Source of the DNA: an uncultured Anaerolineae bacterium
GTDB taxonomy: Bacteria > Chloroflexota > Anaerolineae > Aggregatilineales > J027
Reading direction: 5' to 3'
Assembly (NCBI GenBank): GCA_964557285.1
Contig: CAZKZS010000002.1
Span: 1 to 56,688, forward strand
Length of the DNA: 56,688 nt
The notes below the pieces were generated by a model. The model was not told the origin of the DNA. It searched no databases and saw nothing but the letters and a program-made list of their open reading frames with translations. The position numbers were made by a program, and so were the translations under genes. Position 1 is the first letter of the stretch. Every line of letters starts with the position of its first letter. Of this stretch, positions 14,930 through 48,534 are shown in pieces.

Positions 14930-14958
14930 TTTACACATACTACACTATAGTGTATTAT
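14930..14958 (+). promoter_or_regulatory. Promoter P1 with embedded operator TACAC-TATA-GTGTA
   Basis: -35 TTTACA (14930-35), 17-nt spacer, -10 TATTAT (14953-58). The palindrome at 14941-14954 overlaps the spacer and -10. Confidence 0.7.
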
Positions 14959-15019
14959 GATTATGACGTAGTAGGTGGCACCCCACTGCGCTTATTCAGC
15001 ACAGAAAGAAGGAGGAGAC

Positions 15020-15523
15020 ATGATGAACCACAAACCTGAACTGCCGCGCACACTCACCGGGCGACTGGCGGTTCCGAAGGGGTCGGCGGTGCTGTACTCC
15101 AGCCAGGCTGACGAGGAGTTTGGCCGTGTGGTCGGCCATGTGATCGGGCCATCGGGCCGGGTCAGCCACTATCAGGTAGTGACCAATGGCAAGATGGTAC
15201 GGGTTCCGACCTATCGGGTTCTCCGCGAGGCGCGGGACAGACAGCCGCTGCCGGGCGTGCCGGAACATATTCCAAGCCTGGTCGAGTTTGCCCGGTTGTG
15301 CCGGATGATCCGGGCCACCGTCCTCCGCAACGAGGACACACTGCTGGCAACAGTGGCGGGCCGCACCGCGATTTGTCATGTGTGCAGCAGCGAGCAGGTC
15401 GCCGTCCGCGCTCTGAAGACGGTGCAGGCGTCGCTCCGTCGTGTCGCTGCCCGCGATCCCCGTCCGCGTGTCTCTCGCGCCCCGTACCCGTCCTACCGAT
15501 GGGCCACCGGGGGCGGCCTATGA
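15020..15523 (+). CDS. Hypothetical protein
   Basis: ATG at 15020 after AGAAAGAAGGAGG. 167 aa. Confidence 0.6.
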   Translation: MMNHKPELPRTLTGRLAVPKGSAVLYSSQADEEFGRVVGHVIGPSGRVSHYQVVTNGKMVRVPTYRVLREARDRQPLPGVPEHIPSLVEFARLCRMIRATVLRNEDTLLATVAGRTAICHVCSSEQVAVRALKTVQASLRRVAARDPRPRVSRAPYPSYRWATGGGL

Positions 15524-15876
15524 AGGCCATTCCGAACCGTTCGGTACCGCCCATTCGTGACCTGTTCAACAAGATCGCAGACCCGGAGTGGATTCTCTGG
15601 TCACTGGTTGACGGCAAGGCGGCGGGCCGCTGCGGCAGCCTCCAGCGCCTGCTGGACGACCTCTGGCTGGTGCTGGTCTGGGTGGACCCTGATTTTGGCC
15701 TCCAGCACTGGCAGGCCGAGCGCTACCTGCGGGCCTGGCGCCGGCATTACCCAGACCAGGTGGAGGCGACACTGGAGTTGATCGAGGCGGTCATCCTGGA
15801 AACAAGCCGCCCGGATGAGATCAGCTGGTGCAGCACGATCCTTCAGCAGCGGGAAGGAGGGGCGGACGGATGGTGA
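15520..15876 (+). CDS. Hypothetical protein
   Basis: ATGA start/stop overlap at 15520. MKAIPNRSVPPIRDLF...; 118 aa. Confidence 0.55.
   Translation: MKAIPNRSVPPIRDLFNKIADPEWILWSLVDGKAAGRCGSLQRLLDDLWLVLVWVDPDFGLQHWQAERYLRAWRRHYPDQVEATLELIEAVILETSRPDEISWCSTILQQREGGADGW
15532..15544. repeat. Palindrome copy CCGAACCGTTCGG
   Basis: Exact 13-nt core at the 5' end of CDS 15520..15876. Confidence 0.9.
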
Positions 15877-16118
15877 CGCAGCTGATGTTGGTTCCAGTCA
15901 TGGTCGACGACTTGCGAGCGGAGGGCCTGCCTGCGTTCGCGCAGGATGCCGAGAGCGGTTTATGGGTGATGGAATTTGGGCAGGGCTGCCAGGCAGTGTT
16001 CACGGCGGACTATGACGAGTCGGTGCAGATCGCCCATCGGATGTGGGTTCGGCACGAACATCCGGCTTCTTTCCTTCCTGAGCCGGAACCCTGGTGGAGG
16101 CGGGAACATCCCTTCTGA
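15870..16118 (+). CDS. Hypothetical protein
   Basis: ATG at 15870 overlaps the upstream stop. 82 aa. Confidence 0.5.
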   Translation: MVTQLMLVPVMVDDLRAEGLPAFAQDAESGLWVMEFGQGCQAVFTADYDESVQIAHRMWVRHEHPASFLPEPEPWWRREHPF

Positions 16119-16142
16119 GATGATGGTTGTGGGAGTGTGCGG

Positions 16143-16171
16143 CCGCTGCTGTCCCTGGCAGCGGTTTTTTT
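16143..16171 (+). terminator. Rho-independent terminator
   Basis: CCGCTGC tgtccctg GCAGCGG followed by T7. Confidence 0.7.
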
Positions 16172-16188
16172 AGCGATGAGGAGGACCG

Positions 16189-16614
16189 ATGATCGCCATT
16201 ACTCTCCACCAGCCCTGGGCCACGCTGGTCGCTATCGGGGCAAAGGAATACGAGACACGAAGCTGGGCGACCCGGTATAGGGGACAGATCGCTATCCACG
16301 CGGGCAAGTACAAATGCCGGGACTACGGCAAGCTGCTGTGGCAGGATCCGTTTAAGTCGGTGCTGAAGAAAGCGGGCTTCGACTACTACGACGCGCTGCC
16401 GTTCGGGATGGTGATCGCGGTCGCGGACCTGACCGCCATCTACGATGGGGAGATGCTGGCACCGAAGCTGGCGGCGATGGGCCGCGATCAGGAACTGATT
16501 TTCGGTTCCTATGGGCCGGGCCGTTACGCCTGGCGGCTGGAAAACGTGAAACGAATCGCCCCGCGCCCGGCCAGAGGAGGGCATAAATTGTGGACTTGGC
16601 ACGCGGCGCTGTAG
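16189..16614 (+). CDS. ASCH domain protein
   Basis: MIAITLHQPWATLVAIGAKEYETRSW..YRGQIAIHAG matches the ASCH/PUA-like N-terminal signature. RBS GAGGAGGA. Confidence 0.65.
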   Translation: MIAITLHQPWATLVAIGAKEYETRSWATRYRGQIAIHAGKYKCRDYGKLLWQDPFKSVLKKAGFDYYDALPFGMVIAVADLTAIYDGEMLAPKLAAMGRDQELIFGSYGPGRYAWRLENVKRIAPRPARGGHKLWTWHAAL

Positions 16615-16627
16615 CACGGATGTGCTA
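16612..16627. promoter_or_regulatory. Palindrome TAGCAC-GGAT-GTGCTA (second operator-like family)
   Basis: Perfect 6-4-6 inverted repeat spanning the ASCH stop codon, 46 nt upstream of the next ATG. Confidence 0.3.
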
Positions 16628-16672
16628 GAAAGTTAAGCAAGGTAATCCAATTTACCTGGGAGCCGAGAGGTT

Positions 16673-17083
16673 ATGTATATCATAAAGGGAGTGATAACCG
16701 CCCCCCAGCGCTGGTGGCGCGAAACAAAGGTCGGGCTGTATGAGCGGCGGATCGTCTGGCTGGTCGATGTACTCGGAACGAGAGAATCCGAGCTTTCATT
16801 CGTGAAGGTGCGCTACAAGTGGCGCCATGACAAAGCCGGGTTTCGCGCGGACGTGATGTTGGATTGGGAGGGAAACCATATCGCTTACGGTGTGCTGGAA
16901 TTTCGGGGCGACGTGGTTCTGGAATGGAAGGATGGCGAGGTATACCGCTACCATCCGGGCTGGTGGGAGCGCGTTTTTGTCAACCTAGTTGAGCAAATAC
17001 AAGAGTCTTATGAACAGGCGCGGTTCGCCGAGTATGAGACGCGGTTCGCGCCGCACAAGTCGAAAGAAGAAGACGAGTATTAG
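16673..17083 (+). CDS. Hypothetical protein
   Basis: ATG at 16673, GAGAGG RBS. 136 aa. Confidence 0.6.
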
Positions 17084-17094
17084 AGGAGTTTTTG

Positions 17095-17532
17095 ATGAAG
17101 GTGGTACACATCTTTACCGATGGGGCGTGCAGGGGCAATCCGGGGCCGGGCGGCTGGGCTGTGCTGTTCCGCAGCCCGGACAGTGAGACACCGCGAGAAC
17201 TGTCCGGTGGCGACTCGAACACCACCAATAACCGGATGGAGCTAATGGCGATCATCATGGCGCTGGAGGCGCTGGAGGTTCCTCATATCATCATCCTGAC
17301 GACGGATTCGGAGTATGTCCGCAAGGGCATTACCGAATGGATCGTCCGATGGAAAGGCAACGGCTGGCGCACCTCGAATGGAAACGCCGTGAAAAATCGG
17401 GACTTGTGGGAACGACTGGATAACGCGGCCCAGCATCATACGATTGACTGGCGCTGGGTCCGTGGGCACGCGGGCAACCCAGACAATGAGCGCGTGGATG
17501 CGCTCGCAGTGGCGGCCATCCCAGATGATTAG
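17095..17532 (+). CDS. rnhA: Ribonuclease HI
   Basis: [29 protein letters not shown] and [16 protein letters not shown] cover the full DEDD(H) RNase H type 1 motif set. The ATG at 17095 is preceded by an in-frame TTG. Confidence 0.9.
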
Positions 17533-17722
17533 GGCCACCCTGTTCGGTCACGAGTGCCACTGGGACGGCGAATTGAGCGAGATGCTGGCACAGCCGGCGT
17601 CGGATTATACCCGGATCACCGAGGAACCATTCGCAGAAGACGAGGTATCCGCGCGAGCCAATGCGCTGTACGCCCGGATACAGGCCGTTTGGAAGAAACG
17701 AGCGGAGGCCAGGGATGAGTGA
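17525..17722 (+). CDS. Small hypothetical protein
   Basis: ATG at 17525 overlaps the rnhA 3' end. High third-position G+C. 65 aa. Confidence 0.5.
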
Positions 17723-18029
17723 CATCGGTCGTCGATACCGATTCGCCCGCGAGCAGGCCGGGCTGAGCATCGCGCAGACGGCGCGGTTATCTGGCCTTGA
17801 CGCGGAGGATGTCCGCGCTATCGAGGAAGGGATCATCATATACGATCCGGCGGGGCGGCTGCCGTCGATTTACGGGATTGACCCGGCCTGGCTGATTCAG
17901 GGCGCGGATTTTGAGGGCTTCGTGCTGAAAAACTTCACCCCCCTGGTGGATGCGCTGATTGCCGCCGGTCGGAAAGACCTGGCGCTTGAACTGATGGGGA
18001 TGAGCGGCACGCAGCGTCAGGAGCGGTGA
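17715..18029 (+). CDS. XRE-family helix-turn-helix protein
   Basis: RFAREQAGLSIAQTARLSGLDAEDVRAIEEG is a classic HTH_XRE pattern. 104 aa. Confidence 0.7.
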   Translation: MSDIGRRYRFAREQAGLSIAQTARLSGLDAEDVRAIEEGIIIYDPAGRLPSIYGIDPAWLIQGADFEGFVLKNFTPLVDALIAAGRKDLALELMGMSGTQRQER

Positions 18030-18030
18030 C

Positions 18031-18237
18031 GTGTTGAAATATGTGTACGACGCGGACAGTGACACGCTGCTCCGCACGGAAGAAGCCGAGCCAGTGTGCG
18101 GGGACTACTGCGAGAACTGCGGGGACTGCCTGCATTGTCACGCAGATACCCCATGCCGGAACGGCGGCAGCCACTGGTGGGTAGTGTATGAAGAAGGGAG
18201 CAAGGAGCCATGTCCAAAAAACGACGAAGTGTGGTAG
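18031..18237 (+). CDS. Cys-rich small protein
   Basis: GTG start. CGDYCENCGDCLHCHADTPC cluster. 68 aa. Confidence 0.45.
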   Translation: MLKYVYDADSDTLLRTEEAEPVCGDYCENCGDCLHCHADTPCRNGGSHWWVVYEEGSKEPCPKNDEVW

Positions 18238-18497
18238 GGAAAGGGACGCCACGCCCGGATTTGTTCCAGGGCGAGGTCATGGAGTGTAAGGTCTGCGGCA
18301 AGCGCGAGCAGTCGGACCCGGAGAAGGAATCCGGCTGGACAGTCTTACAAATCGATGACCAGGTGACCTACTTCTGCCCGGCCTGCTGGCACGGTGCCGG
18401 CGCCAAGGTCGGCTATGCGGAGGTGATGAAGCTGGCGGTGCTGATGCAGACCGACGGCCGCGCCCTGCGGATTTTCCGGTCGCTGCTGAGGGGCTGA
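18210..18497 (+). CDS. Zn-ribbon small protein, paralog 1
   Basis: AAGGAG RBS. Basic N-terminus, then FQGEVMECKVCGKREQS...WTVLQ...YFCPAC. Paralogous to 19481..19735. Confidence 0.6.
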   Translation: MSKKRRSVVGKGTPRPDLFQGEVMECKVCGKREQSDPEKESGWTVLQIDDQVTYFCPACWHGAGAKVGYAEVMKLAVLMQTDGRALRIFRSLLRG

Positions 18498-19456
18498 TGA
18501 GCAGCCACCAGCTGGCACAGGTCGGCGACCTGTATACCTGTGTGGTGTGCGGCTGGAACTGGAAGCGGATGCCGTCGGACGAGTGTCCCGGCGTCCGCCG
18601 CTACCGCTGGGACCCCTGGCCGGAGCAGCTGATGACCAAAAACCAGCTGGCGAAGGCAGGCTACCAGACGGGGCGCCGCCTGCCGCCAGTGGCCGGGGTG
18701 ATTGCCCGCGAAGACTCACCGGGCGGCTGGCTGCGGCTGTACGACCCCACTCAGGCCGTGCCAAAGCAGCCAGTGACGCCGCGCCAACAGGTCGCGCTCG
18801 CCAAAGCCCAGGCGGCGCGGAAGTGCCGGGAATGCGGCCGCACCCTGAGCCGTCGGGAGCGCCGGCTGTGCTGGACGTGTGATGCGCGGTTGGAAGCCCG
18901 CTACTGGGCGGCCTCGGTCTTGCAGCGGGGAGCCGTCATTCTGGACACGGAAACGACCGGGCTGGACAACGCCGAGATCATCGAACTGGCGGTCATTGAC
19001 GCCTACGAGCGCGTGCTGCTGAACACCCGGATTAAACCCCTCTGCCCGGAGCGGATGTATGAAGTGGGCAGCCGGGGTCTGAGCGCCTTCGACATTCACG
19101 GAATCAGCGCGGAGATGCTGGTGGATGCACCGACGTTCGCGGAGGTCTACCCGCGCCTGCGTCGCGTTGTGGAAGGCCGCCCGGTGCTGGTCTATAACCT
19201 GCGCTTCGACCGCGACCGCCTGCGGGAGGACTGCGAGCGCTGGCAGCTGCCGGCACTGGATTTTTCGGCCTGGGACTGCGCGATGGAGTGGTACGCACAG
19301 TGGATCGGTGAATGGTCGTATCGGCGTGGCTCGTTTCGCTGGCAGCCGCTGAACGGCGGGCACGATGCGCTGGGAGACTGCCTGGCATGTCTGGATCGGA
19401 TGAGGCGCATGGCGAACGCAACAATGCCGCGCACGCGAACGGGTGTGCTACAATAG
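18497..19456 (+). CDS. DEDDh 3'-5' exonuclease (DnaQ/epsilon-like) with N-terminal double Zn-ribbon region
   Basis: ILDTETTGL (ExoI), VYNLRFDRDRL (ExoII) and GGHDALGDCLA (ExoIII, H-type). N-terminal CVVCG...C and CRECG...CWTC. Confidence 0.8.
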   Translation: MSSHQLAQVGDLYTCVVCGWNWKRMPSDECPGVRRYRWDPWPEQLMTKNQLAKAGYQTGRRLPPVAGVIAREDSPGGWLRLYDPTQAVPKQPVTPRQQVALAKAQAARKCRECGRTLSRRERRLCWTCDARLEARYWAASVLQRGAVILDTETTGLDNAEIIELAVIDAYERVLLNTRIKPLCPERMYEVGSRGLSAFDIHGISAEMLVDAPTFAEVYPRLRRVVEGRPVLVYNLRFDRDRLREDCERWQLPALDFSAWDCAMEWYAQWIGEWSYRRGSFRWQPLNGGHDALGDCLACLDRMRRMANATMPRTRTGVLQ

Positions 19457-19480
19457 GAGGCAAAAACAGGAAGCCTCCCC

Positions 19481-19735
19481 GTGAAACACAAACGCAAGCG
19501 GCGGTCCGCGTCGCCCCTGTCGGCCCCGTTTACAGGTGAATGGATGGAGTGCCTGCTGTGCGGCAAGCGCGAGCGCAGCAGCCGTCACACTGGAAGCCGC
19601 TGGACAGTGATCCAGCGCCAGCGGCGGCATTACATCTGCCCGGACCACATCCCCGCGGACCCGGCGCAGTTTTTGACTGCTTACCTCACCTTCCAGGCTG
19701 CCGCCGTCCAAAAGGAAGCCCAGCATGGCCGCTGA
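19481..19735 (+). CDS. Zn-ribbon small protein, paralog 2
   Basis: GTG start. MKHKRKRRS... FTGEWMECLLCGKRERS...WTVIQ...YICP. Confidence 0.5.
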   Translation: MKHKRKRRSASPLSAPFTGEWMECLLCGKRERSSRHTGSRWTVIQRQRRHYICPDHIPADPAQFLTAYLTFQAAAVQKEAQHGR

Positions 19736-20480
19736 AACCTACATCACCAAAACGGGCCTCCACAAGCTGTCGATTAGCTGTGTCCGCGTGGGTGTCGGCA
19801 CTGGCGAGGTACAGGTGATGGTGAACGGAGAGACAAAACACCGGCTGCCCGTCGAGGCGGCGCGGATGGTGCTGGCGGTGTCCGTTCCCTACCACCTGAA
19901 GCGGGGCGACCACGTGGCGGTATCGGCCAACGCCAGCCTCCAGCCGCACGTCGAGGCCGTTTATCAGGATCGGGAGGTCATCCCGCTGGTGCTGTCAGGC
20001 AGCGAAGCCGAGTTCAAGGAATGGTGTCTGGAGCATCAGCTGGACCCGGACAACGCCTACCAGGTGATGCAGGTGCTGTATCCGATGGATCTGGCGGCGC
20101 TGGAAGCGGTCGAAAGCACCTGGCTGGTGCTGGCGGGCAGCTGGCGGCGCCGGCTGGCACACGACGCAGGACTGCGAAAGGCGGTTGAATACTGGCTGGG
20201 GCGTCCGGTTGTGGAAACGGTTCACGACTGGCGACGCTGTGTGACCCGCTGGCTGGTGGACCCCTGCCAGGCGGCGGAACTGGTCGTCGGCCCGGATGGC
20301 CGGGTACGGCGCACCAACAAGGCGGGGATCATCAAATTCCGGCACAGGGACATCCTCGACCACATTCTGGGCAACCGGCTTCAGGTCGGAGGATACACGT
20401 TAAGCTATCTCACCCGCGACCGAGAGTATCAGTATTGGACAATCATTGCCCCGCCACAAGGGGCGCTGCGGGATTTATAG
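19725..20480 (+). CDS. Hypothetical protein
   Basis: ATG at 19725. 251 aa. It is the last gene of the plus-strand island. Confidence 0.6.
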   Translation: MAAETYITKTGLHKLSISCVRVGVGTGEVQVMVNGETKHRLPVEAARMVLAVSVPYHLKRGDHVAVSANASLQPHVEAVYQDREVIPLVLSGSEAEFKEWCLEHQLDPDNAYQVMQVLYPMDLAALEAVESTWLVLAGSWRRRLAHDAGLRKAVEYWLGRPVVETVHDWRRCVTRWLVDPCQAAELVVGPDGRVRRTNKAGIIKFRHRDILDHILGNRLQVGGYTLSYLTRDREYQYWTIIAPPQGALRDL

Positions 20481-20557: not shown

Positions 20558-20559
20558 AC

Positions 20560-24513: not shown

Positions 24514-25454
24514 CGTTCAGCCGCTTTTGTGTTCAGGTAATGCTGGGCCAGTTTGACCAGCGCGTCGACGGGGCGATCCGGGTCGATGTCGGCGCGGGCG
24601 ATCAGGGTCTTGATCGCTTTTTGCAGCACGGCCGCGTCTTTGGCCTTGAGGTCGCTGGCACGCAGCAGCACAGGCAGCGACACCAGCGGCAGGCCGTCCT
24701 TGAGGTCGCCGTCCGCGTTGAAGACGTGTTCGGCCAGGTCGCCGGCACGGGCGAGGAAAAATTGCAGGATGAGGTGCAGGGCAACCGCTACATTTTTGAC
24801 ATCGAAGGTGGCGCGGCTGATGTCCAGCGCGTCCAGATAGCGGCCGTAGTCGGTCCATCGCGCCAGCCAGGCTTCGTTCCCCGCCACCAGCTGGGCGGCC
24901 AGGGCAAACGCTTCACGGGCGGCGTCACGTTCGTCCGGCAGAAAGACCAGGCTGACCGTCTGGAAGCCAAAGGCGGCCTCGGACAGCGGCTGGATTTTCG
25001 TCGGCTCCAGCAGAGCAATCGTTTTGTCGTCCACGCCGGAGTACACCCGGTCTTCGACCGTCGGGATGGACTCATAGAGGATTTTGAGGATGGCCGGGTC
25101 ATCCTGCCCGAAGATGCTGTTGTGGGACAGCTGGACGGCGATGCGGCGGGCCGGGTCGTGGTAGCCGAGAATGACCTGAACCTCAATGGTGGCGAGGCCG
25201 GCGTCGATGGCGGCCTGAACGCGGTGGTTGCCGCTGAGGACTTCGAGGAAGGGCTGACCGTCGTCATCCACCTGCGGGGTGCGGGTGGTGTCGTCGTGCA
25301 GTTCCCAGCAGAGTGGGGTCGAGGTCAGCACACCGTCGCGTTTGATGTTTTCAACCAGACGGCGGTACATCTCGGCCGGCATGTAGTGGGCGTTCAGGTC
25401 GAGCAGCTTGAGGGTTCGTGGGTCGACCGTGCGGGTGTGCAGTTGCAGAGTCAT
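24510..25454 (-). CDS. ParB-like nuclease domain protein
   Basis: Internal ATG at 25452-25454 with a GGAG RBS. LDLNAHYMP, DGVLTSTPL and LSGNHRVQAAIDAG form a ParB N-terminal (sulfiredoxin-fold) pattern. 314 aa. Confidence 0.65.
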   Translation of the reverse strand: MTLQLHTRTVDPRTLKLLDLNAHYMPAEMYRRLVENIKRDGVLTSTPLCWELHDDTTRTPQVDDDGQPFLEVLSGNHRVQAAIDAGLATIEVQVILGYHDPARRIAVQLSHNSIFGQDDPAILKILYESIPTVEDRVYSGVDDKTIALLEPTKIQPLSEAAFGFQTVSLVFLPDERDAAREAFALAAQLVAGNEAWLARWTDYGRYLDALDISRATFDVKNVAVALHLILQFFLARAGDLAEHVFNADGDLKDGLPLVSLPVLLRASDLKAKDAAVLQKAIKTLIARADIDPDRPVDALVKLAQHYLNTKAAER

Positions 25455-26809
25455 CGGGAGGGCTCCTGGTGTCCGTGTCTGGCTTTCCAGCGGGGCAGCG
25501 CCTCGGCGAGCGGCCACTGTCCGGCGGCGGCCTGGTAGTTGACCATCCATGCCGTGTCTGCGTCCGGCGTGCGCTTGCGTGAGTACAGCGTAAACAGCCC
25601 TCGGTATTTCATGCTGTTGGGGTTGTCCGTGAAGGCGGTCGTGAAGACGTGGCGAACCCGGTGTTTGTTCATTCGTTCCGCCAGCACCTGGGCCTCGCGG
25701 CTGAGCGCGGCGTACAGCACCAGCTTGGACAGGCGCGGGTAGTCGGTCGGCGCGACGGCGAAGTCGGACAGCAGGTAGATCGTGTCCGGGGCGCTGAAGG
25801 GGTGGGACGGGCTGCTGAAAGCGAAACATCCGACCAGCCGGCCGTCGACCAGGACGGCATAGGCTGGTCCGGCAGCACCCGGCGCGATGTGCCGGTTCAG
25901 GTACTGGGAGCGCAGTGCGTTGAACTGCGCGGGGGTGAGCGGGGCCAGGGACAGGGTATCGCCAATCGGCTGCCCTGGGGACAGGCGCGGCAGCGGCACG
26001 GCGGCCAGCGGCTGGCGGGGCTGCACCACGCCGATTTTGTGGGTCGAGGAGTACATATACACCTCCGGGGCGCGGGGTGTAGTTTTGACGACCCCCCGGA
26101 GCGCCAGGTCGGGTATCTGGAAGTTGAGCCAGAGAATCCAGTGGGCGCGGGTGGCGGCGATGTGCTGGGCCATCCGGGTGATGTCGGCCTGGTTGAGGAG
26201 AGTGTACGCGGGCTGCGGCCAGTCAAACAGGGTGTTGATTTTGGCGAACAGCCGCTCGTAGCCGCCGGCGAAAAACGGCGGAAAGGACAGGAAAGCCGCC
26301 CCGTCGGGCAGCTGGTCGATCCGATCCAGCACGTCCCCGTTGAAGTAGGAGGCCAGCGGCAGGCGCACCGTACCCAGCCGGGCGCGGGTGGTGTCGAGCA
26401 GGCCCTCCCACTGCTGGCGATAGGCGGCCAGCATCCGGCGGTGATACGGGTTGTCGCGCCCCTGTCCGGTTTGGTCCAGGTGGTCGACCATCCGCGTGAG
26501 CAGCATGACGGTGGCGACTTTGCCGTCGTCGGTGGCGAGGCCGGGCTGCATCCACGCCAGGGCGTCGGCAGCGGACGGCTTCAACTGAAAGTGGATCGGC
26601 TGCCCGGCGAAGAACTGCCCCAGGACGTAGGAGTAGACCGAGACATCGTTGCTGTGCAGGCGCATCCCTGGCGCGTACTCGTAGAGCAGCCGCTCCAGGG
26701 TGAAGTGGCCGGAACAGCCAACGTACACGTCGCTGACCTGCCCGACCCATTCGCGGACGGCGGCAGCGATCATCGATCTCACATCGGGCATAGTGGTTCC
26801 CAGAAACAT
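25451..26809 (-). CDS. Two-domain protein: Dam-like (D12-class-like) methyltransferase-fold N-terminal half with atypical FPPF motif, plus uncharacterised C-terminal domain
   Basis: ATG at 26807-26809 with an AAGGA RBS. VYVGCSGHF (motif-I-like) lies about 155 aa before LSFPPFFAGGYERLF (motif-IV-like). The C-terminal VLVDGRLVGCFAFS...IYLLSDFAV is GNAT-like. The assignment is tentative. Confidence 0.3.
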   Translation of the reverse strand: MFLGTTMPDVRSMIAAAVREWVGQVSDVYVGCSGHFTLERLLYEYAPGMRLHSNDVSVYSYVLGQFFAGQPIHFQLKPSAADALAWMQPGLATDDGKVATVMLLTRMVDHLDQTGQGRDNPYHRRMLAAYRQQWEGLLDTTRARLGTVRLPLASYFNGDVLDRIDQLPDGAAFLSFPPFFAGGYERLFAKINTLFDWPQPAYTLLNQADITRMAQHIAATRAHWILWLNFQIPDLALRGVVKTTPRAPEVYMYSSTHKIGVVQPRQPLAAVPLPRLSPGQPIGDTLSLAPLTPAQFNALRSQYLNRHIAPGAAGPAYAVLVDGRLVGCFAFSSPSHPFSAPDTIYLLSDFAVAPTDYPRLSKLVLYAALSREAQVLAERMNKHRVRHVFTTAFTDNPNSMKYRGLFTLYSRKRTPDADTAWMVNYQAAAGQWPLAEALPRWKARHGHQEPSR

Positions 26810-26834
26810 ACGGGGAGTCCTTTGGAAAGAAAAA

Positions 26835-26876
26835 GGCCCGGTCGCAGAGGTACTGAGGGGAAGGTGCGGACCGGGC
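26835..26876 (-). terminator. Hairpin terminator/attenuator after the tRNA-like gene
   Basis: Minus strand: GCCCGGTC ... GACCGGGC (8-bp stem) followed by CTTTTTCTTTCC. An A-run on the other side makes it potentially bidirectional. Confidence 0.5.
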
Positions 26877-26895
26877 AAAAAGTGAAAAATGGTTA

Positions 26896-26966
26896 AGCGG
26901 ACCCCCGGACTCGAACCGGGCAATCCGGCGCGGTACGCCGGCACAGCACCTGGCTGTCCAATCCGC
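26896..26966 (-). tRNA. tRNA-like gene, Gly-type identity with anticodon ACC (atypical)
   Basis: Hand-folded cloverleaf: acceptor GCGGATT/GGTCCGC, D arm ACAG-CCAGGTG-CTGT, anticodon arm CCGGC-GTACCGC-GCCGG, variable loop ATTG, T arm CCCGG-TTCGAGT-CCGGG, discriminator T. Atypical features are G8, G32 and A34. No encoded CCA. Confidence 0.5.
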
Positions 26967-28116: not shown

Positions 28117-28145
28117 TTTACTCATTATACACAACAGTGTATAAT
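28117..28145 (+). promoter_or_regulatory. Promoter P3 with operator TATACAC-AACA-GTGTATA
   Basis: -35 TTTACT, 17-nt spacer, -10 TATAAT (28140-45). 7-4-7 palindrome at 28126-28143. TTAACAATC box and leader hairpin at 28173-28198. Confidence 0.75.
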
Positions 28146-28217
28146 GATAATACCTTAACAATCAATTTCAGCGGCGCAGACCAGCACACCCCTGCGCCCA
28201 AAAGAAAGAAGGATCCT

Positions 28218-31114: not shown

Positions 31115-31141
31115 AAGGGGAGCGCATCCCCTCCCTTTTTT
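31115..31141 (+). terminator. Rho-independent terminator
   Basis: AAGGGGA gcgca TCCCCT followed by CCC and T6. Confidence 0.65.
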
Positions 31142-35492: not shown

Positions 35493-35502
35493 GGAGCAGC
35501 TA

Positions 35503-36385: not shown

Positions 36386-36892
36386 ATGTCGATTAAAGTG
36401 TTTCCTTTCGTGCTGGTCGCGGCAGCGATGGGGGTGCTGGCGGCGCTGGTCGCAGCCCGCAGCGGAGCGGCGGTCATCGCTCAGGCGGGCGAGACGCCGG
36501 AATACCGGACGGCCTGTGAAGCCTACTGGGCGGCGCAGGGCGAACCGGAGGTGATTTGCGGGCGGGACTGGAATCAGTGGTATGTCACCACACCGGTACA
36601 GCACCCGGTACAGCAGGTTACCGCTGCGCCAACGGCGGTGCTGCCCGTCGGGATTACCACGATGGTCGTTGACCTGCGAGACGAATGCCGGGACGACGCG
36701 CCAATCAAGCGCACCGTCCGGGCACGAACGACCTTCACCCTGGTCGGCGTGCGGCTGAATGGGCAGTGGTTGATGGTGATCGACCAGGACGGCCAGATCG
36801 CGTGCCTGAAGGAGTGGATGTGGCTTGCAAACGGCGCCCGCTTTACGAACTTCACGATTTTAAGCGGGTTTGTGACTGACCTGGATGAATAA
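36386..36892 (+). CDS. Membrane-anchored/secreted protein with SH3-like C-terminal region
   Basis: N-terminal hydrophobic segment FPFVLVAAAMGVLAALVAA. RBS AAGGAG. 168 aa. Confidence 0.55.
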   Translation: MSIKVFPFVLVAAAMGVLAALVAARSGAAVIAQAGETPEYRTACEAYWAAQGEPEVICGRDWNQWYVTTPVQHPVQQVTAAPTAVLPVGITTMVVDLRDECRDDAPIKRTVRARTTFTLVGVRLNGQWLMVIDQDGQIACLKEWMWLANGARFTNFTILSGFVTDLDE

Positions 36893-36947: not shown

Positions 36948-37029
36948 TGAGATTGTACTCCTATAACTGAGGAGCCGGCAAAGCTGCCTCCCCAGGTTAA
37001 CGGACTGAGGTCTAGGGGGCGCCTCACTA

Positions 37030-37086
37030 TTGCATTTTCGTTACCATGTGTTACAATCACCTCACTGTATTTTTTGATATGGTAAC
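37030..37086 (+). promoter_or_regulatory. Promoter plus inverted/direct repeats upstream of the RHH-like gene
   Basis: -35 TTGCAT, 16-nt spacer, -10 TACAAT (37052-57). IR GTTACCAT (37040-47) / ATGGTAAC (37079-86). Direct repeat CCTCACT x2. Confidence 0.55.
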
Positions 37087-37097
37087 GGAGATAGACG

Positions 37098-37316
37098 ATG
37101 CCGAACGTTGCTCAGAGCAAAGTGGTGAGGATAGAGGAGGAATGGCATGAAACGATCAACCGGCTCGCCGAGGCCAGCGGGTTGAGCGTCCAGCTGGTCC
37201 ACTCGCTCCTGCTTGAAAACCTGCTCGGAAAAGACAAGGACGCCCGAATCTCGAAAGGGATCGAGGTGATCCGCCAGCAGTTTCCAGTCCATTTAGACCC
37301 TCATATAGGAGGATAG
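37098..37316 (+). CDS. Ribbon-helix-helix-like small regulator (tentative)
   Basis: 72 aa. KVVRIEEEWHETINRLAEASGLSVQLVHSLL has a beta-strand + helix-helix pattern. Confidence 0.4.
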   Translation: MPNVAQSKVVRIEEEWHETINRLAEASGLSVQLVHSLLLENLLGKDKDARISKGIEVIRQQFPVHLDPHIGG

Positions 37317-38016: not shown

Positions 38017-38090
38017 TCTTTTACGCGCCGCTCATCCTACCCCATCGGCGAGGTTGACTGGTGGGGTCGGCTGCGGCATTGGAGGAACTC

Positions 38091-39005
38091 ATGTCCCATG
38101 CACTTCACTGGCGATTCCGTGCCAAAGCGCTCCGGGAAATGCGGTTTGAAGGCCGCCTGGCGATGCTGGTCGCTCTGCTGTCGCACAGCAACCTCCGGCT
38201 GCGCTGTTGGCCGTCAATGCAAACCCTGAGCGAGGAAACAGGGTACAGAAGCGAGGCGCTGAACAAAGCCAAGAAATGGCTGCTCAGCGTCGGCGCGATG
38301 TATGTGGTCCCCTACCGATACCGGGTCGGCAAAGAGCGGGAACTGCCCCGCACACAGCACGTCTACCAGCTGACCGGCGTGATGAAAATCGGTGACCAAT
38401 GGCAGCCCTATCTCTACGTATCCCCGGAGACGGTTCGGGGGATCATTGACGAAATAAAGCAGTTTGTTGTTTTTTCGGAGATCGAAATTTCGACTATCGA
38501 AAATTCGATCAGCGAAATTTCGACCAGCGAAACAGAAGATTCTTTAAAAGAGAAAAAAGGTAGTACCAAGAAAAAAGGTAGTACCAAGAAAAAGACTTCT
38601 CCGTCTCCAGCGCCGGAGGCAGAGCGCAAGCGCAACCTGATTTTCGACGAGGTAGCCCGCCTGCTGTTCCGACTTCAGGAGACAGCCCAACTGGACAAAA
38701 GTATTGCCGGGCGGATCGGCAAAATCACCGCCGCGCTGCGGGCCGAGTACGGCGTGACCGCCCCCCACGACGCTCAACAGGCCGCGCCGGCCGTGGACGC
38801 GCTGCGGAAGTTCGCGGCCTGGTACGACCGGGAGGCGAAAGGCGCCGCCCGCCCGCGTGACCTGACCAAGTTCAAAGAATGGTGGGCCAGTTGGAAGCAG
38901 GCGAACGCGCCGGGTGCACAGGAAGAAACCCCCATCCAATCGGTGGACGGCGACGCCATTCTGCGGCGGCTGGGCATTCGCCCGGCAGGAGGAAGCACGG
39001 CATGA
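38091..39005 (+). CDS. Replication initiator-like winged-helix protein (DnaD/O-like) containing the putative origin
   Basis: ATG at 38091 after GGAGGA. CWPSMQTLSEETGYRSEALNKAKKWL HTH. Followed by the DnaC-like loader with an ATGA overlap. Confidence 0.55.
   Translation: MSHALHWRFRAKALREMRFEGRLAMLVALLSHSNLRLRCWPSMQTLSEETGYRSEALNKAKKWLLSVGAMYVVPYRYRVGKERELPRTQHVYQLTGVMKIGDQWQPYLYVSPETVRGIIDEIKQFVVFSEIEISTIENSISEISTSETEDSLKEKKGSTKKKGSTKKKTSPSPAPEAERKRNLIFDEVARLLFRLQETAQLDKSIAGRIGKITAALRAEYGVTAPHDAQQAAPAVDALRKFAAWYDREAKGAARPRDLTKFKEWWASWKQANAPGAQEETPIQSVDGDAILRRLGIRPAGGSTA
38482..38588. repeat. Iteron cluster plus A-rich direct repeats (candidate origin of replication)
   Basis: TCGAAATTTCGA (38482), TCGAAAATTCGA (38497), GCGAAATTTCGA (38512) and GCGAAAC (38528), with a 15-nt period. 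Then AAAAAAGGTAGTACCAAG x2 (38553-38588). The stretch is locally AT-rich. Confidence 0.6.
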
Positions 39006-40682: not shown

Positions 40683-41237
40683 TCACTCTTTGGGAAGTTG
40701 CTTTTGCAGCGCTTCGATGGTGGCCTCGGCCCGGCCCAGGTCTTTCATCAGGCGCTGTATTTGTTCCTGGAGGTTCTGTTCCTGCCCTTCGGCCCGTTCC
40801 AGCTGCTGGCGGATGACCGCCAGCGTGGCACGGGTTTCGATGAGATCGTGTTCAGCCTGGCGCAGCCGCGCATTTTCCTCGTTGAGGTCGGCCACCTTGC
40901 GGTTCAGCAGGTCGATCTGGGCGGTCAGCTGGCGTTCCACATCGGCAGCCAGCATGACGGTCATTTCTTCGGGGGTTTCGGCGGGCGCCTGGCCGCGCTG
41001 ACCGCGCTCCAGCGCTTGCGCGATTTCCTCATACGTCAGCCCGGCAGCTTTTGAGGTCGCCACCAGGTCAAACACCGTCATGTCGTCGACGGTGAAAAAG
41101 CGGGTGCGGCTGCGCCCCGGATTGGCGCTTGGCGAGAGGTAGCGTTCAAAGGTTTCGGCCCAGTTGATGATCGTCTGGCGGGCCACGCCGAAGCGCCCGG
41201 AAGCCTGTTCTGTGGTGTAGCGGAGTTCGGTCGTCAT
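40683..41237 (-). CDS. MerR-type HTH protein with long C-terminal coiled coil
   Basis: YTTEQASGRFGVARQTIINWAETFERYL...RFFTVDDMTVF, then heptad-rich ~90 aa. 184 aa. Confidence 0.65.
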   Translation of the reverse strand: MTTELRYTTEQASGRFGVARQTIINWAETFERYLSPSANPGRSRTRFFTVDDMTVFDLVATSKAAGLTYEEIAQALERGQRGQAPAETPEEMTVMLAADVERQLTAQIDLLNRKVADLNEENARLRQAEHDLIETRATLAVIRQQLERAEGQEQNLQEQIQRLMKDLGRAEATIEALQKQLPKE

Positions 41238-41297
41238 AGGCCAATCTTATCCACTTTTGTCCAAGTGGCGCTACTTTGCGGCAGATGGAGAAGTGTA

Positions 41298-41402
41298 GAT
41301 CAAGATGGAACTTCATCGTGTGACTTGGATCAAGATTTACAGAGTTGTAAGTTTTAGCAAAAGCGCCTATACTGAGGGCTAAATTTTGTAAGTTCTTGTA
41401 AG
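41298..41402 (+). promoter_or_regulatory. Promoter and short direct repeats upstream of the ParM-like gene (parC-like candidate)
   Basis: GATCAAGAT x2 (41298, 41328). TTGTAAG x3 (41345, 41386, 41396). TTGTAA-17 nt-TATACT (41345-41373). Confidence 0.55.
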
Positions 41403-41411
41403 AGGTTAGCG

Positions 41412-42530
41412 ATGAGCAGTTTACAGCAGGAACACAATGCCATTCTCAGCGAGATCGAGGGGCAGGTGGTGGGTTTGAATGTGGGCAACGGCTTCGTCAA
41501 GGGGACGAACGGCGCCGCCCGGCTGCCCGTGATTCCGTCGGTGGTGTCGGTCATGAATGAGATGGTCGAGTATGAGGAAAACTACTCGCCGGACGACATC
41601 CTGATCGAGTACCAGGGGGTGCGGTATGCGGTGGGATACACCACCCACCGGCTTGGCTCGGCGGCGGTGCCGGATATGTCCGGCGAGCGGATGATGTCCA
41701 GCGACTACCTGATTTTGTTTCTGGCGGCGCTCTCCCTCCTGGACCCCGGCGACAAACGCCGGAACGGGGATTTTGTGCCGGCGCGGGTGGTGCTGGTGGC
41801 ACCCCTCTCCAGCTACAACCGCAACCGGAAGCAGATCAAAAAGTACCTGGCCGGTTCCCACCAGGTCGGCGTCATCCAGAGCGGGCGCCTCCGGCGGACC
41901 GTGACGATCCACATCAGCGAGGACATGCTGAAAATTATCCCGGAAGGCCGGGGCACGCTGGCCTCGCTGACCCTGACCGACGAGGGGCTGCCGGTGGACC
42001 CGGACGGCTACAGCACCCGCACGGTCGGGATCGTGCAGGTTGGCACCCGCACCACCGAGGGCCTGTTTTACGAGCGCTCCCTGCCGAACGACTCGCGGTC
42101 GTGGGGGCTGTCCAAAGTCGGGCTGTCAACGGCCTGGAAGCACCTTCAGGACTATGCCCGCAACCGCCACAACTTCGAGTTGGATATGTACCAGGCCGAT
42201 GAAGCCCTGAAGGCGGGCGGGTTTTACATCGGCAAAAAATGGATCGACCTGGGTGAGGAGGAGCGGAAGGACTCCTTTATCGCCAATGTGGCCCGGCAGG
42301 TTGGCAATGAACTGGCGACCCGCTGGCAGAACGGCGAGGATACCTACCATTTGCTGCTGTCGGGCGGTGGGACGGAGGATGTCTATCCCTACCTGCGCCA
42401 GCGCTTCCCACATCTCACGCGGGTCAAAGACCCGGTGTATGCCGAGGCGGTTGGCGCCTGGAAATACGGCCTCTTCTCTGTGCTGAACGAGATGGGGATT
42501 ATCAAAAGGTACGTTGATGAACAGCAATAA
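41412..42530 (+). CDS. parM: ParM/StbA-like actin-fold segregation ATPase
   Basis: GLNVGNGFVKGTNG (phosphate-1) and HLLLSGGGTEDVYPYL (adenosine/GGG motif). 372 aa. Confidence 0.7.
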   Translation: MSSLQQEHNAILSEIEGQVVGLNVGNGFVKGTNGAARLPVIPSVVSVMNEMVEYEENYSPDDILIEYQGVRYAVGYTTHRLGSAAVPDMSGERMMSSDYLILFLAALSLLDPGDKRRNGDFVPARVVLVAPLSSYNRNRKQIKKYLAGSHQVGVIQSGRLRRTVTIHISEDMLKIIPEGRGTLASLTLTDEGLPVDPDGYSTRTVGIVQVGTRTTEGLFYERSLPNDSRSWGLSKVGLSTAWKHLQDYARNRHNFELDMYQADEALKAGGFYIGKKWIDLGEEERKDSFIANVARQVGNELATRWQNGEDTYHLLLSGGGTEDVYPYLRQRFPHLTRVKDPVYAEAVGAWKYGLFSVLNEMGIIKRYVDEQQ

Positions 42531-42885
42531 AAGAAACCACCGGGATCGGCGCCAGCGCTCCGTCTGGTTCGCGGAGACGGCGCAAGAAAATGCGCTGCAT
42601 GAACTGGTCTGCCAGATGGAAGACCAAAGAATTGAGTTTCGCTTCTGGGTCAAGCAGGTGCTGGCGCAGCTGCTGGATGGCAGCCTGACGTTCAACCGGA
42701 ACACCATGCGGTTTGAGGCAGGCGCCGAGTCGCCCAGCGAAGTGCTGGCGAAGCTGGACGAAATTCTCCTGCGGATGCGGAGCGGCCAGCTGGTCATGAC
42801 GACGGATGTGCCTACCGCGCCGAACCAGGTGCAGGTCAGCCGGACGATCTTCGAGGCGTTTGCGGAGATGGAAGCCGATGATTGA
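42517..42885 (+). CDS. ParR-like adaptor candidate
   Basis: Basic N-terminus, RSVWFAETAQENALHEL (possible RHH) and an acidic tail. It overlaps the parM 3' end. 122 aa. Confidence 0.35.
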   Translation: MNSNKRNHRDRRQRSVWFAETAQENALHELVCQMEDQRIEFRFWVKQVLAQLLDGSLTFNRNTMRFEAGAESPSEVLAKLDEILLRMRSGQLVMTTDVPTAPNQVQVSRTIFEAFAEMEADD

Positions 42886-46559: not shown

Positions 46560-46568
46560 GGGGCGGCT

Positions 46569-47480
46569 ATGAACAACATTCTACTCCCGGAAGCAGTCGC
46601 CGGCGCGTTGCAGCGCGGGGCACCGCTGCTGGTGCATTGTTCCGGCGGCAAAGACTCTGACGCGATGCTGCTGGCAGTGTCGGCGGCACGCGCTCGCTGC
46701 GGCTGGCCGGGCCGCTTTCTGGTGGTTCACTGCGACCTCGGTCGCATGGAATGGCCGCAGAGCCTTCCTCATACCGAGCAAATGGCGGCAGCCGTCGGCG
46801 CGGAAATGGTCGTCCTGCGGCGCGAGTTTGACCTGCTGGAAGGCATAGAGCGGCGGCGGGACAAGATGCGGGCCGATGGCAAAAGTGGCCCGTTCTGGCC
46901 GGATGCGCGGTCGCGCTACTGCACGAGCGATTGGAAGCGCGATGTGACGGACCGCTGGATACGCCAGCAGTGGCCTCGTGACGCCGAGGTCATCAACGCG
47001 ATTGGCCTGCGTGCCGAGGAGAGCGCGGCTCGGAAACGGCGGGCAGTGGTCGTGAGTCGGAACTCGTGTGCGCCGTCCTATGGTCGCCAGGTCAACGACT
47101 GGCTGCCGATCCACCATTGGACCGAGCCGGAGGTGTGGGCACAGCTGGGGGTGTCGATGGCATATCTGGCATGGGTGCGCCAGCAGGTGCGGGACGGGCA
47201 GACACCCGACGCGCTGGGCTGGACCTGGCACCCAGCCTATGCCTACGGCAACCAGCGGGTCAGCTGTATGCTGTGCGTCTTAGCGAACCGGAACGACCAC
47301 CGCAACGGGGCCGCGCACAATCCTGCGCTGTATCGCCACCTGGTCGATCTGGAGCTTGAAAGCGGCTACAGCTTCCAGAATGGGCGCTGGTTGGCCGATC
47401 TGTCCCCCGACCTGCTACGCCCGGATCAACGGACCAGACGGGACGTGATGAAAACAGAAGCCACGCCGGTACTGATTTAG
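46569..47480 (+). CDS. PAPS-reductase-family PP-loop protein (DndC/IbrA-like)
   Basis: PP-loop VHCSGGKDSDAM, RYCTSDWKRD and a C-terminal SCMLCVLAN Cys pair. 303 aa. Confidence 0.75.
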   Translation: MNNILLPEAVAGALQRGAPLLVHCSGGKDSDAMLLAVSAARARCGWPGRFLVVHCDLGRMEWPQSLPHTEQMAAAVGAEMVVLRREFDLLEGIERRRDKMRADGKSGPFWPDARSRYCTSDWKRDVTDRWIRQQWPRDAEVINAIGLRAEESAARKRRAVVVSRNSCAPSYGRQVNDWLPIHHWTEPEVWAQLGVSMAYLAWVRQQVRDGQTPDALGWTWHPAYAYGNQRVSCMLCVLANRNDHRNGAAHNPALYRHLVDLELESGYSFQNGRWLADLSPDLLRPDQRTRRDVMKTEATPVLI

Positions 47481-47489
47481 GAGGATGTC

Positions 47490-47807
47490 ATGAGTTGGAA
47501 GCAGACCGTTAAGAACATGGAAAAAGCGGCGGCGTATGTGCTGGAGCATCCCCAGGACTGGCATACCGCCAGCAGCCTCGCAGACGCGGTGAACGCGCCA
47601 CAGACGGATGTTGAGCATATCGCCCGCAGGCTGCATGGGATGTATCTGCGCGGGGAAATCAAACGCCGCCGCCGCGAGAAACGCACGATTGTGGAATATC
47701 AAGCGAAGGAGAGAAGTTCTGATGGAATCCCAGGTTCTGGTGCTGACACTGGCGCCCGTGCAGATGAGCGAGGGCGCAAGGAAAATCGAGATCGATTATC
47801 TGCGTGA
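47490..47807 (+). CDS. Winged-helix-like small protein
   Basis: AGGAGGA RBS. Its 3' 86 nt overlap the next gene. Confidence 0.5.
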   Translation: MSWKQTVKNMEKAAAYVLEHPQDWHTASSLADAVNAPQTDVEHIARRLHGMYLRGEIKRRRREKRTIVEYQAKERSSDGIPGSGADTGARADERGRKENRDRLSA

Positions 47808-48075
47808 CTTTTATGAGCAGGTCCACGCGAAGCATGTCGAGGCGGTGCTGGAACGCCTACCGGCGCCGAATGCCCTGATGGTTACTGAGGACGGCGAGCG
47901 GGTGGTCTTCATCCAGCGCAACCGGGGCGACCTGGTGGAGGTGTTTATCTTCACCGTTGAAGAATATGCGGCGGGCGGCGATTTTACGCTGGACGTGGAG
48001 TTCTCCCAGATGGGTGAGCCGGCGCTGCTGTCGGTCTACGCGGGCGGGCAGCAAAACCGTGAAAGGGGAGGCTGA
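47722..48075 (+). CDS. Hypothetical protein
   Basis: Internal ATG at 47722 with an AAGGAGAG RBS. 117 aa. Confidence 0.55.
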   Translation: MESQVLVLTLAPVQMSEGARKIEIDYLRDFYEQVHAKHVEAVLERLPAPNALMVTEDGERVVFIQRNRGDLVEVFIFTVEEYAAGGDFTLDVEFSQMGEPALLSVYAGGQQNRERGG

Positions 48076-48077
48076 AG

Positions 48078-48485
48078 ATGAATAAAGTGAAGCTGGTTTT
48101 TGCCGGCAGCCGTCGGGTCGAACAGTTCGTCTATCTGTACTATCCGGTCACCGTCAACGGCGTGCAGGAAGACGCGGCCCAGATGTATCCGGCACAACTG
48201 CTGGATATGCAAATCGGCGAAACCGCCCTGTTTGTCCCCGGCGAAAACGGGGTTGGTGTCCTGACCGGGGACGAAGCCGAGCCGGTGCGAACCGGGGTGC
48301 TGGATGATCCGGCCAGCATCGCCCTGTGGGAGGCGCAGAGTCAGCTGGAGGTGCAGGAGGCGGTCGCCCATGCGATTGAGGTGTTGCTGGCGCTGCTGGC
48401 GCTGCATGAGACGGACGCCAAACGCCGGGAAGCGCTCGGCGCGATTGTCGAGGTGCTGGCCCAGGTAAAATGCGGGCAAACTTGA
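48078..48485 (+). CDS. Hypothetical protein
   Basis: ATG at 48078, GGGGAGG RBS. 135 aa. Confidence 0.55.
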   Translation: MNKVKLVFAGSRRVEQFVYLYYPVTVNGVQEDAAQMYPAQLLDMQIGETALFVPGENGVGVLTGDEAEPVRTGVLDDPASIALWEAQSQLEVQEAVAHAIEVLLALLALHETDAKRREALGAIVEVLAQVKCGQT

Positions 48486-48505
48486 AAATTCCCCTATTTT
48501 ACTCC

Positions 48506-48534
48506 TTGACACACACTACACAACAGTGTAAGAT
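48506..48534 (+). promoter_or_regulatory. Promoter P10 with operator TACAC-AACA-GTGTA
   Basis: -35 TTGACA, 17-nt spacer, -10 TAAGAT. Palindrome at 48517-48530. TTAACAATC box and leader hairpin at 48561-48589. Confidence 0.75.

Follow-up and report, generated by a model that had tools for sequence, protein, structure and literature searches.

A palindrome shared by the plus-strand promoters of an uncultured siphovirus-like phage, a candidate operator for a common repressor

Positions 1 to 56,688 of contig CAZKZS010000002.1 (assembly GCA_964557285.1), a stretch of 56,688 nucleotides (nt) called the window below, cover almost all of the roughly 57-kb genome of an uncultured phage, which is siphovirus-like. 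Its minus strand carries the structural genes (tape measure, major capsid, protease, portal and large terminase), and its plus strand holds nearly all of the non-structural genes. The products of the latter include an RNase H, an XRE-type protein, a DnaQ-like exonuclease, a ParB-like protein (ParB_N and HTH_ParB domains, with a GERRxRA motif), DUF488 and HTH_17 proteins, an O-like initiator, a DnaC-like loader, an actin-like ParM, a DUF3102 protein and a PAPS-reductase-like protein. Here we describe the palindrome TACACNNNNGTGTA (TACAC-N4-GTGTA), which lies within the promoters that head almost every plus-strand unit and may serve them as a common operator.

The plus-strand promoters and their palindrome

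Seven exact matches to the palindrome occur in the window, all of them on the plus strand (Table 1), while none was found in 100 dinucleotide-preserving shuffles, so that none is expected by chance. Allowing one mismatch adds the copy in promoter P7, with a GGGTA arm, which stands in promoter context and has the same flanks as the exact copies. Another one-mismatch match, at 20639 in the portal gene, has no such context; it was rejected as an operator, being probably due to chance. Among the gaps of 0 to 12 nt tried between TACAC and GTGTA, a gap of 4 alone occurs. An earlier note on this DNA had reported both the shared palindrome and its placement in the 3' half of the spacer and the first two bases of the -10, and on both points our counts agree with it at all eight sites. 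Its table of copies is likewise correct except for P8, where CTACAC begins at 36930, one position off. The lone CTACAC half-site that it had placed beside the TACAAT of the head operon is also present, on the minus strand (GTGTAG at 14847-14852).

By consensus scan, seven of the eight sites lie in promoters made up of a -35 hexamer (TTGACA, TTTACA, TTAACA or TTTACT) and a TAnnAT -10 that are 17 nt apart. These seven qualify as sigma70-type promoters by their hexamers, with 9-11 of 12 consensus bases matched and a 17-nt spacer in every case. The earlier description of plus-strand operons that begin with a -35, a 17-nt spacer and a -10 thus holds for these seven but not for the site at 36931 (P8), which has GATCTT and no -35. 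Terminator-like hairpins were found by scan upstream of P2, P3 and P4 (the last at 31116-31132, just upstream of the promoter), and a hairpin followed by a T-run is visible upstream of P7. Downstream of the promoters, within 24-200 nt, are AAGGAGG or AAGAAAGAAGG boxes and open reading frames (ORFs) with high third-position G+C.

All eight copies share one register relative to the promoter as well as one strand. The palindrome starts 5 nt past the -35 hexamer and ends with the first two bases of the -10, so that the operator core takes up spacer positions 6-17 and -10 positions 1-2. Alignment of the eight copies gives ccTTtACA-CA.Ac-TACAC-nnnn-GTGTA-nnAT-G-Ataat, in which an outer symmetric pair is also seen: the CA right after the -35 is invariant and mirrors the TG after the -10. 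This left CA is not part of any polymerase element and is kept even at the copy that has no -35 (36931). The extended dyad, (a/t)CA-N3-TACAC-N4-GTGTA-N3-TG(a), is 24-26 bp long, longer than the site given in the earlier note, and spans the whole spacer and the -10. In P3 it forms a perfect 26-bp palindrome with 11-nt arms, TCATTATACAC-AACA-GTGTATAATGA (28122-28147).

Across the eight copies, the 10 core arm positions show a single deviation in 80 cells, as against 6 deviations from TTGACA in 42 cells for the -35 hexamers of the seven promoters that have one. The four central bases vary freely (TATA, AATA, AACA, AGTC, AGTA, TATC, AAAA and AACA). The arms are therefore more tightly constrained than the elements that polymerase contacts, and symmetrically so, with bases outside the polymerase contacts conserved as well. 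Isolated half-sites outside promoters are at chance level (13 against about 11 expected); all eight copies of the full palindrome lie within promoters.

Some other readings of the palindrome were set aside. Compared by eye with a Fur box, ATGATAAT agrees at only 10-12 of 19 positions, and the NrdR box and the familiar LexA boxes differ in spacing. An RNA-hairpin role is unlikely, since the palindrome lies upstream of the predicted start and would form only 5 base pairs.

Table 1. Coordinates of promoters, leaders, dispersed sites and candidate regulators in the window.
Feature	Position	Strand	Palindrome start	Description
P1	14930-14959	+	14941	-35 TTTACA, 17-nt spacer, -10 TATTAT; operator CATAC-TACAC-TATA-GTGTA-TTATG
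P2	27074-27103	+	27085	-35 TTGACA, 17-nt spacer, -10 TAGGAT; core CTACAC-AATA-GTGTAG
Leader after P2	27113-27154	+		TTAACAATC, then hairpin with loop CCAGCACACC
P3	28117-28146	+	28128	-35 TTTACT, 17-nt spacer, -10 TATAAT; boxA/boxB-like leader follows
Leader after P3	28155-28198	+		same TTAACAATC box and CCAGCACACC loop, different stem
P4	31146-31175	+	31157	-35 TTAACA, 17-nt spacer, -10 TATAAT; operator TACAC-AGTC-GTGTA
Degenerate ninth copy (promoter 33964)	33953-33988	both		TTTACTCATTCTAC-CCATTGTA-GTAGAATGAGTAAA, found by position-weight scan
P7	36151-36180	+	36162	-35 TTTACA, 17-nt spacer, -10 TAACAT; one arm mismatch, TACAC-AGTA-GGGTA
P8	36920-36949	+	36931	perfect operator CTACAC-TATC-GTGTAG, -10 TAGGAT, GATCTT in the -35 place
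P9	45949-45978	+	45960	-35 TTTACA, 17-nt spacer, -10 TAGGAT; operator CTACAC-AAAA-GTGTAG
P10	48506-48535	+	48517	-35 TTGACA, 17-nt spacer, -10 TAAGAT; operator TACAC-AACA-GTGTA
Leader after P10	48544-48590	+		same TTAACAATC box and CCAGCACACC loop, different stem
CCGAAC-N-GTTCGG copies	5788, 13497, 15532, 20545, 27017, 30248, 36215, 40638, 45898, 50345			second dispersed palindrome
XRE-type helix-turn-helix protein	17715-18029	+		104 amino acids; within the P1 operon; candidate regulator
HTH_17 protein	35470-36075	+		fourth-ranked candidate regulator
72-amino-acid protein	37098-37316	+		'cro' position, first gene ahead of the replication module; candidate regulator
MerR-family protein	40683-41237	-		184 amino acids; N-terminal winged helix-turn-helix and long coiled coil

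P1 drives the block 14975-20480 (RNase H, XRE and DnaQ-like exonuclease) and is divergent from the head operon. A boxA/boxB-like leader comes after P2, with three small acidic genes behind it, and a similar leader after P10, with the 48609-51928 operon. P7 has a leader of about 200 nt and then gene 36386-36892, the product of which has a hydrophobic N-terminus that reads by eye as a signal peptide. P8 lies upstream of the genes for the 72-amino-acid protein, the O-like initiator and the DnaC-like loader. P9 diverges from a promoter on the minus strand (45854-45826), which drives the genes of two membrane proteins. Just 5' of the gene for the 72-amino-acid protein there is a second possible promoter (37029-37092), TTGCAT-16-TGtTACAAT, of the extended -10 type and without operator. 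An inverted repeat, ATTTTCGTTACCAT / ATGGTAACGGAGAT, encloses this promoter, and the ribosome-binding site lies within its 3' arm.

The leaders of P2, P3 and P10 are built alike: TTAACAATC, about 10 nt, a hairpin with the invariant loop (A/G)CCAGCACACC, and then AAGAAAGAAGG. Exactly three exact copies of TTAACAATC occur in the window, all in these leaders. The three hairpin stems are different and co-vary, which with n=3 is thin evidence of covariation. Conserved leaders that begin directly downstream of the -10 at three promoters lend indirect support to these being genuine start sites. TTAACAATC resembles the rrn boxA of E. coli (..CUUUAACAA..), and by analogy the leaders are shaped like a boxA/boxB nut site, with a possible role in antitermination. 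The leader elements had no match in Rfam at gathering score, and no N homologue was detected in the window.

The lineage and its other palindromes

The same phage is found in dozens of public assemblies at 99.7-100% identity, the largest copy being 57,348 bp and none exceeding 200 kb. No relatives at the DNA level were found in the phage collection or in the plasmid collection. The capsid protein is at most 37% identical to that of any phage record, and metagenomes supply over 1000 relatives of it at about 50% identity. The phage is a member of a large, entirely uncultured lineage without a studied representative. A search of species-representative genomes with the portal protein gave no match. 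The sole hints of a host are the source names of distant ParB homologues, Chloroflexota and Anaerolineae.

Relatives were reached via the ParB-like protein (44-48% identity) or the capsid protein (55%); they have a similar gene order and were read in stretches of ±10 kb. One of them, L036, is from an NCBI metagenome-assembled genome of 63% G+C and carries an integrase, so that at least this relative is probably temperate. It has four promoters of the form cccTTGACAcagACTATACTGT-ACAGTATAGTtatggcat (cccTTGACA-17-TATAGT), holding a 20-bp palindrome, ACTATACTGT-ACAGTATAGT, that is placed as in the window. Downstream of all four is a leader hairpin, analogous to the hairpins after P2, P3 and P10, in which the loop is CACCAC and the stems differ. 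The arms of the two palindromes, CTACAC/GTGTAG in the window and CTATAC/GTATAG in L036, differ by one symmetric change and by a change of spacing.

Other relatives carry yet other palindromes. In L035 the element TTGACAttgcACAGTttatACTGTATAAT holds ACAGT-N4-ACTGT, a 5-4-5 palindrome in the same register as in the window. L032 has one promoter with TACAC-N6-GTGTA, and two others that retain the right half alone (TTATCGTGTATAATG). In L016, TTGTAC-N6-GTACAA lies over TACAAT -10 boxes in two divergent promoter regions. The stretches read of L034, L037, L038 and L039 have no repeated promoter palindrome. A search for conservation of the motif in homologous phages, as the earlier note had suggested, thus recovers the promoter-palindrome design in part of the lineage, but with a different sequence in L036, L035, L032 and L016. 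This is the pattern to be expected if repressor-operator pairs diverge into separate immunity groups, and it speaks for a pair specific to each phage.

Beyond the lineage, a motif scan of IMG/VR gave single chance matches only, in unrelated low-G+C contigs. The core TACAC-N4-GTGTA also occurs within 36-bp perfect palindromes (TTGACACAT.TACAC-N4-GTGTA.ATGTGTCAA) in two metagenome contigs, L023 (at about 756) and L024 (at about 632). There it is upstream of small antitoxin-like genes, ribbon-helix-helix by eye, which are followed by larger ORFs that look by eye like PIN toxins; these are probable vapBC modules. The two contigs have this core in common with the window but no homology to it, and were rejected as relatives.

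Comparison with other genomes also turned up features apart from the promoters. A variant of the same phage (L013, 1-3518) is 100% identical up to window position 19434, after which a ResIII/restriction-endonuclease gene replaces the genes of the window; judged from this alignment, position 19434 is a mosaic junction. A tRNA-Gly (26896-26966, minus strand) lies directly upstream of window gene 25451-26944, which matched phrog_7858 and, weakly, the amidoligase family. Homologues of this gene in L032 and L034 (31-46% identity, tblastn) are annotated with DAM-like-phage1 and GNAT-phage-like domains, and are likewise preceded by a tRNA-Gly (9008-9078 and 8966-9037, respectively). The tRNA of the window has the anticodon ACC, and those of L032 and L034 have TCC. 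This pairing may reflect a tRNA-dependent glycine transfer, such as one that modifies DNA or protein.

Operator-free promoters, dispersed repeats and candidate regulators

A few promoters of the window have no good operator: those of the minus-strand MerR-like gene, of ParM (41345-41373), of the ParB-like gene (34014-34976) and of the minus-strand membrane-protein genes. The third of these carries the degenerate ninth copy. It is a perfect palindrome with 14-nt arms that reads as a -35/-10 promoter on either strand, and the inner arm bases are altered to TACCC..TAGTA, so that this promoter probably escapes the regulator of the operator. A stretch of low G+C (52035-54245; 0.51 against 0.63 for the window), located after a strong terminator (51950-51978), is possibly a recently acquired insert. 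The insert at 52035-53336 carries no operator, and no promoter was mapped for it; the proteins of 433 and 268 amino acids encoded in the stretch had no match in Pfam, PHROGs, NCBIfam or PADLOC.

The intergenic region between the MerR-like and ParM genes (41290-41410) contains direct repeats, with GATCAAGAT present twice and TTGTAAG three times, which give it the look of a centromere of the parC type together with a promoter. Downstream of ParM, a gene for 123 amino acids (42514-42885) is in the position of ParR. Inverted and direct repeats of the TTTCGA/TCGAAA type are clustered at 38472-38532, inside the O-like gene (38061-39005), and by analogy with lambdoid phages are probably the replication origin.

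The window also holds a second dispersed palindrome of 13 bp, (t)CCGAAC-N-GTTCGG(a), in 10 exact copies; a search that tolerates one mismatch finds 12 copies where 2.5 would be expected. The copies lie mostly at gene ends and convergent junctions, three of them at most 70 bp from P2, P7 and P9, and two are inside late genes. Since no T-run follows, they are not classic terminators. They might be sites for the ParB-like protein, as for KorB, or RNA hairpins. Two copies occur in the distant relative L016, and no CCGAAC site was found in the relatives with ParB homologues.

The earlier note had named four candidates for the regulator of the promoter palindrome, a reasonable list; the relatives link none of the four to the site. 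We rank the MerR-like protein first, the 72-amino-acid protein second, the XRE protein third and the HTH_17 protein fourth. The MerR-like protein is the sole candidate to score above the curated Pfam cut-off (PF13411 MerR_1, residues 7-77, 31.5 bits against 21.6), and has no recognisable effector-binding domain. Its gene is the only one for a DNA-binding protein in the early region that is transcribed against the operator promoters; it lies in an operator-free region and adjoins ParM. Proteins of the MerR family bind spacer dyads with a 4-bp centre, and we infer that the protein encoded here is the best candidate repressor. Its sole homologue in a large protein database (36% identity) lies beside an integrase in a 10-kb element, and no related motif was found at that locus. 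Neither the MerR-like nor the XRE protein has relatives in IMG/VR.

The 72-amino-acid protein was modelled with two helices and a mean pLDDT (predicted local distance difference test score) of 76. A fold search with this model gave only insignificant matches to CopG, VapB and AvtR, and the ribbon-helix-helix fold that the earlier note had assigned is unconfirmed. The protein also has a weak, non-significant likeness to the helix-loop-helix of Thermus SigA (residues about 118-157; E 0.025 for the whole sequence and above 1 for the domain), and the same SigA chains top the fold search, at E-values above 2. The XRE protein has weak family matches and an acidic recognition helix (LDAEDVRAIEEG). 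The HTH_17 protein was down-ranked because it is part of a conserved ParB-DUF488-HTH_17 module. DUF488 and HTH_17, which are separate adjacent genes in the window and L034, are fused in L036 (10955-11605) next to the ParB-like gene, and this fusion suggests a functional module. The ParB-like protein itself is unlikely to bind the operator, since its helix-turn-helix region is fairly conserved among relatives that have different palindromes.

A probable common repressor, its rivals and known systems

We consider it probable, from the placement and symmetry of the sites, that a phage-encoded protein on the 24-26 bp dyad blocks polymerase at the eight units, most likely as the repressor of a plasmid-type prophage. 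According to this model, a DNA-binding dimer, or dimer of dimers, would occupy the dyad and so deny both the spacer and the -10 to sigma and polymerase. The eight units, which would use promoters of the host primary sigma factor, would be silenced jointly and released jointly. As to timing, we favour a maintenance repressor of a plasmid-type prophage, because the operator-free promoters serve partition, the MerR-like protein, membrane proteins and possibly the low-G+C insert, and because a relative has an integrase; these indications suggest lysogeny of the phage itself. Alternatively, a product of the regulon, either the 72-amino-acid protein in the 'cro' position or the XRE protein, may act in early shut-off. 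The proposal of the earlier note that one regulator occludes polymerase at the early operons is retained here, given a single shared dyad over spacer and -10, a fixed register and relatives that differ, though its description of the system as stoperator-like is not.

Several observations weigh against this model. Among the window proteins scanned there is no integrase, no S24-peptidase (CI/LexA-type) domain and no protelomerase, and ParM-like and ParB-like genes are known in lytic phages too. No homologue of any candidate regulator was found in the ±10-kb stretches read of the relatives. The public copies of the phage, being 99.7-100% identical, are uninformative on constraint. Finally, part of the right arm may double as an extended -10 element typical of the lineage, as suggested by the two promoters of L032 that have the right half only and by a recurrent G/T-G before the -10 in several relatives.

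One may also speculate on a far more elaborate circuit, in which the MerR-like protein, on the spacer dyad of eight promoters that are otherwise optimal, is the master immunity switch of a plasmid-type prophage, with poised polymerase flipped from off to on in all early units by a single allosteric signal, and the ParB-like protein is a KorB-like clamp at the 10 CCGAAC-N-GTTCGG sites. This would amount to an RK2-like two-tier lysis-lysogeny circuit, which we hold to be improbable.

Positive control is the first of the rival explanations. The dyad would then bind an activator or a promoter-remodelling protein, of the MerR type or a phage factor associated with sigma, which would time the promoters or make them specific to the phage instead of silencing them. 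The window does encode a MerR-family protein, a family that binds dyads within the -35/-10 spacer, and P8, with a perfect dyad and -10 but no -35, is what one would expect of a factor-dependent promoter. However, seven of the eight promoters have good hexamers at the optimal 17-nt spacing and need no activator, MerR-type activation uses over-long spacers of 19-20 nt, and the dyad overlaps the -10 itself. We therefore regard positive control as unlikely. A dyad with a 4-bp centre between the -35 and the -10 is common to the window and the MerR operator merO, a 7-4-7 dyad, but here the spacer is 17 nt at all seven promoters with a -35, and the dyad lies about 5 nt nearer the -10, overlapping it.

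The palindrome could instead be the box of a LexA-type global regulator of the host, through which the phage would make its early transcription depend on the condition of the cell. Host LexA has such a role in some phages and phage-plasmids, and no phage regulator is tied to the site. A conserved host factor is difficult to reconcile with relatives of similar G+C that have different palindromes at the same promoter position, and the exact-pattern scan of public metagenome contigs gave five unrelated single matches and no host regulon. We give this explanation little credence. That the promoters are just eight recent copies of one cassette, in which the palindrome has no function of its own (being an extended -10 part or the relic of a two-way promoter like that at 33953-33988), is very unlikely: their similarity does reach past the dyad (to ccc ahead of the -35 and ATGAtaaT following the -10), three share a leader of about 70 nt and two promoters of L032 retain the right half alone, but both arms remain intact amid divergence of the flanks, of the four central bases and even of the -35, the symmetry takes in bases outside polymerase contacts (the left arm and the left CA), P8 retains the dyad despite the loss of its -35, and the relatives, having evolved other full palindromes, speak against a passive promoter relic.

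The repressor model can be compared with known systems in which one protein acts at many sites. The stoperators of cluster A mycobacteriophages are asymmetric 13-bp sites, located mostly away from promoters and oriented with transcription, that stop elongation (PMC6550527). Heteroimmune relatives in cluster A differ in the sequence of the site, and some of these phages are extrachromosomal and have par genes (PMC6550527, PMC9283540). The window resembles cluster A in having multiple sites for one repressor across the genome and in a site sequence that differs between relatives, but its sites are symmetric and found in promoters only, and half-sites are not enriched. For these reasons the system is not a stoperator system: the asymmetric 13-bp site and the location away from promoters, both of which define stoperators, are absent.

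Repression of many promoters by one protein is also known for phage P1, a plasmid prophage, where C1 acts at asymmetric 17-mer operators, and for the Streptomyces phage phiC31, where the sites are conserved inverted repeats and the early promoters are not sigma70-like. In these, as in the window, one short conserved site at multiple promoters or intergenic regions places many lytic units under one repressor; the window differs in that its site is a strict dyad, set at a constant register within canonical -35/-10 promoters. The window showed no homologue of P1 C1 or of the phiC31 repressor. With lambdoid phages the window shares dyad operators that overlap early promoters, a gene in the 'cro' position before the O-like and DnaC-like (P-like) genes, repeats inside the O-like gene, and, after three promoters, a linear box and a hairpin with a conserved loop, like nut. 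It differs from them in having one operator per promoter rather than three that cooperate, and eight co-directional promoters; no divergent cI-like gene and no CI or Cro homologue was detected in the window.

In the kor system of plasmid RK2, the KorA palindrome lies at the -10 of several strong promoters, and KorB, a ParB-family protein, has a scattered 13-bp palindrome with a central C/G. The likeness is twofold, as the window has an operator at the -10 of many promoters, like KorA, and 10 copies of CCGAAC-N-GTTCGG together with a ParB-like protein, like KorB. However, there is no sequence homology to KorA, and no link of the ParB-like protein to either palindrome was found. By analogy, the logic of the window thus matches that of multi-promoter repressor regulons (P1 C1, phiC31, lambdoid phages and RK2 KorA), and operator-gated early promoters are classic phage biology.

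The finding is accordingly a new instance of a familiar design, in an uncultured lineage, and no concept is overturned by it. The operator delimits an early regulon of eight units and predicts which genes stay on when that regulon is silenced. The different palindromes at the same position in relatives suggest heteroimmune groups, which would be useful for the study of how repressor and operator specificity evolves, and the compact cassettes of promoter and operator could be put to use as orthogonal parts for switches. For this lineage, the operator is an entry point to its regulation, and offers a 24-bp probe with which the repressor could be fished out.

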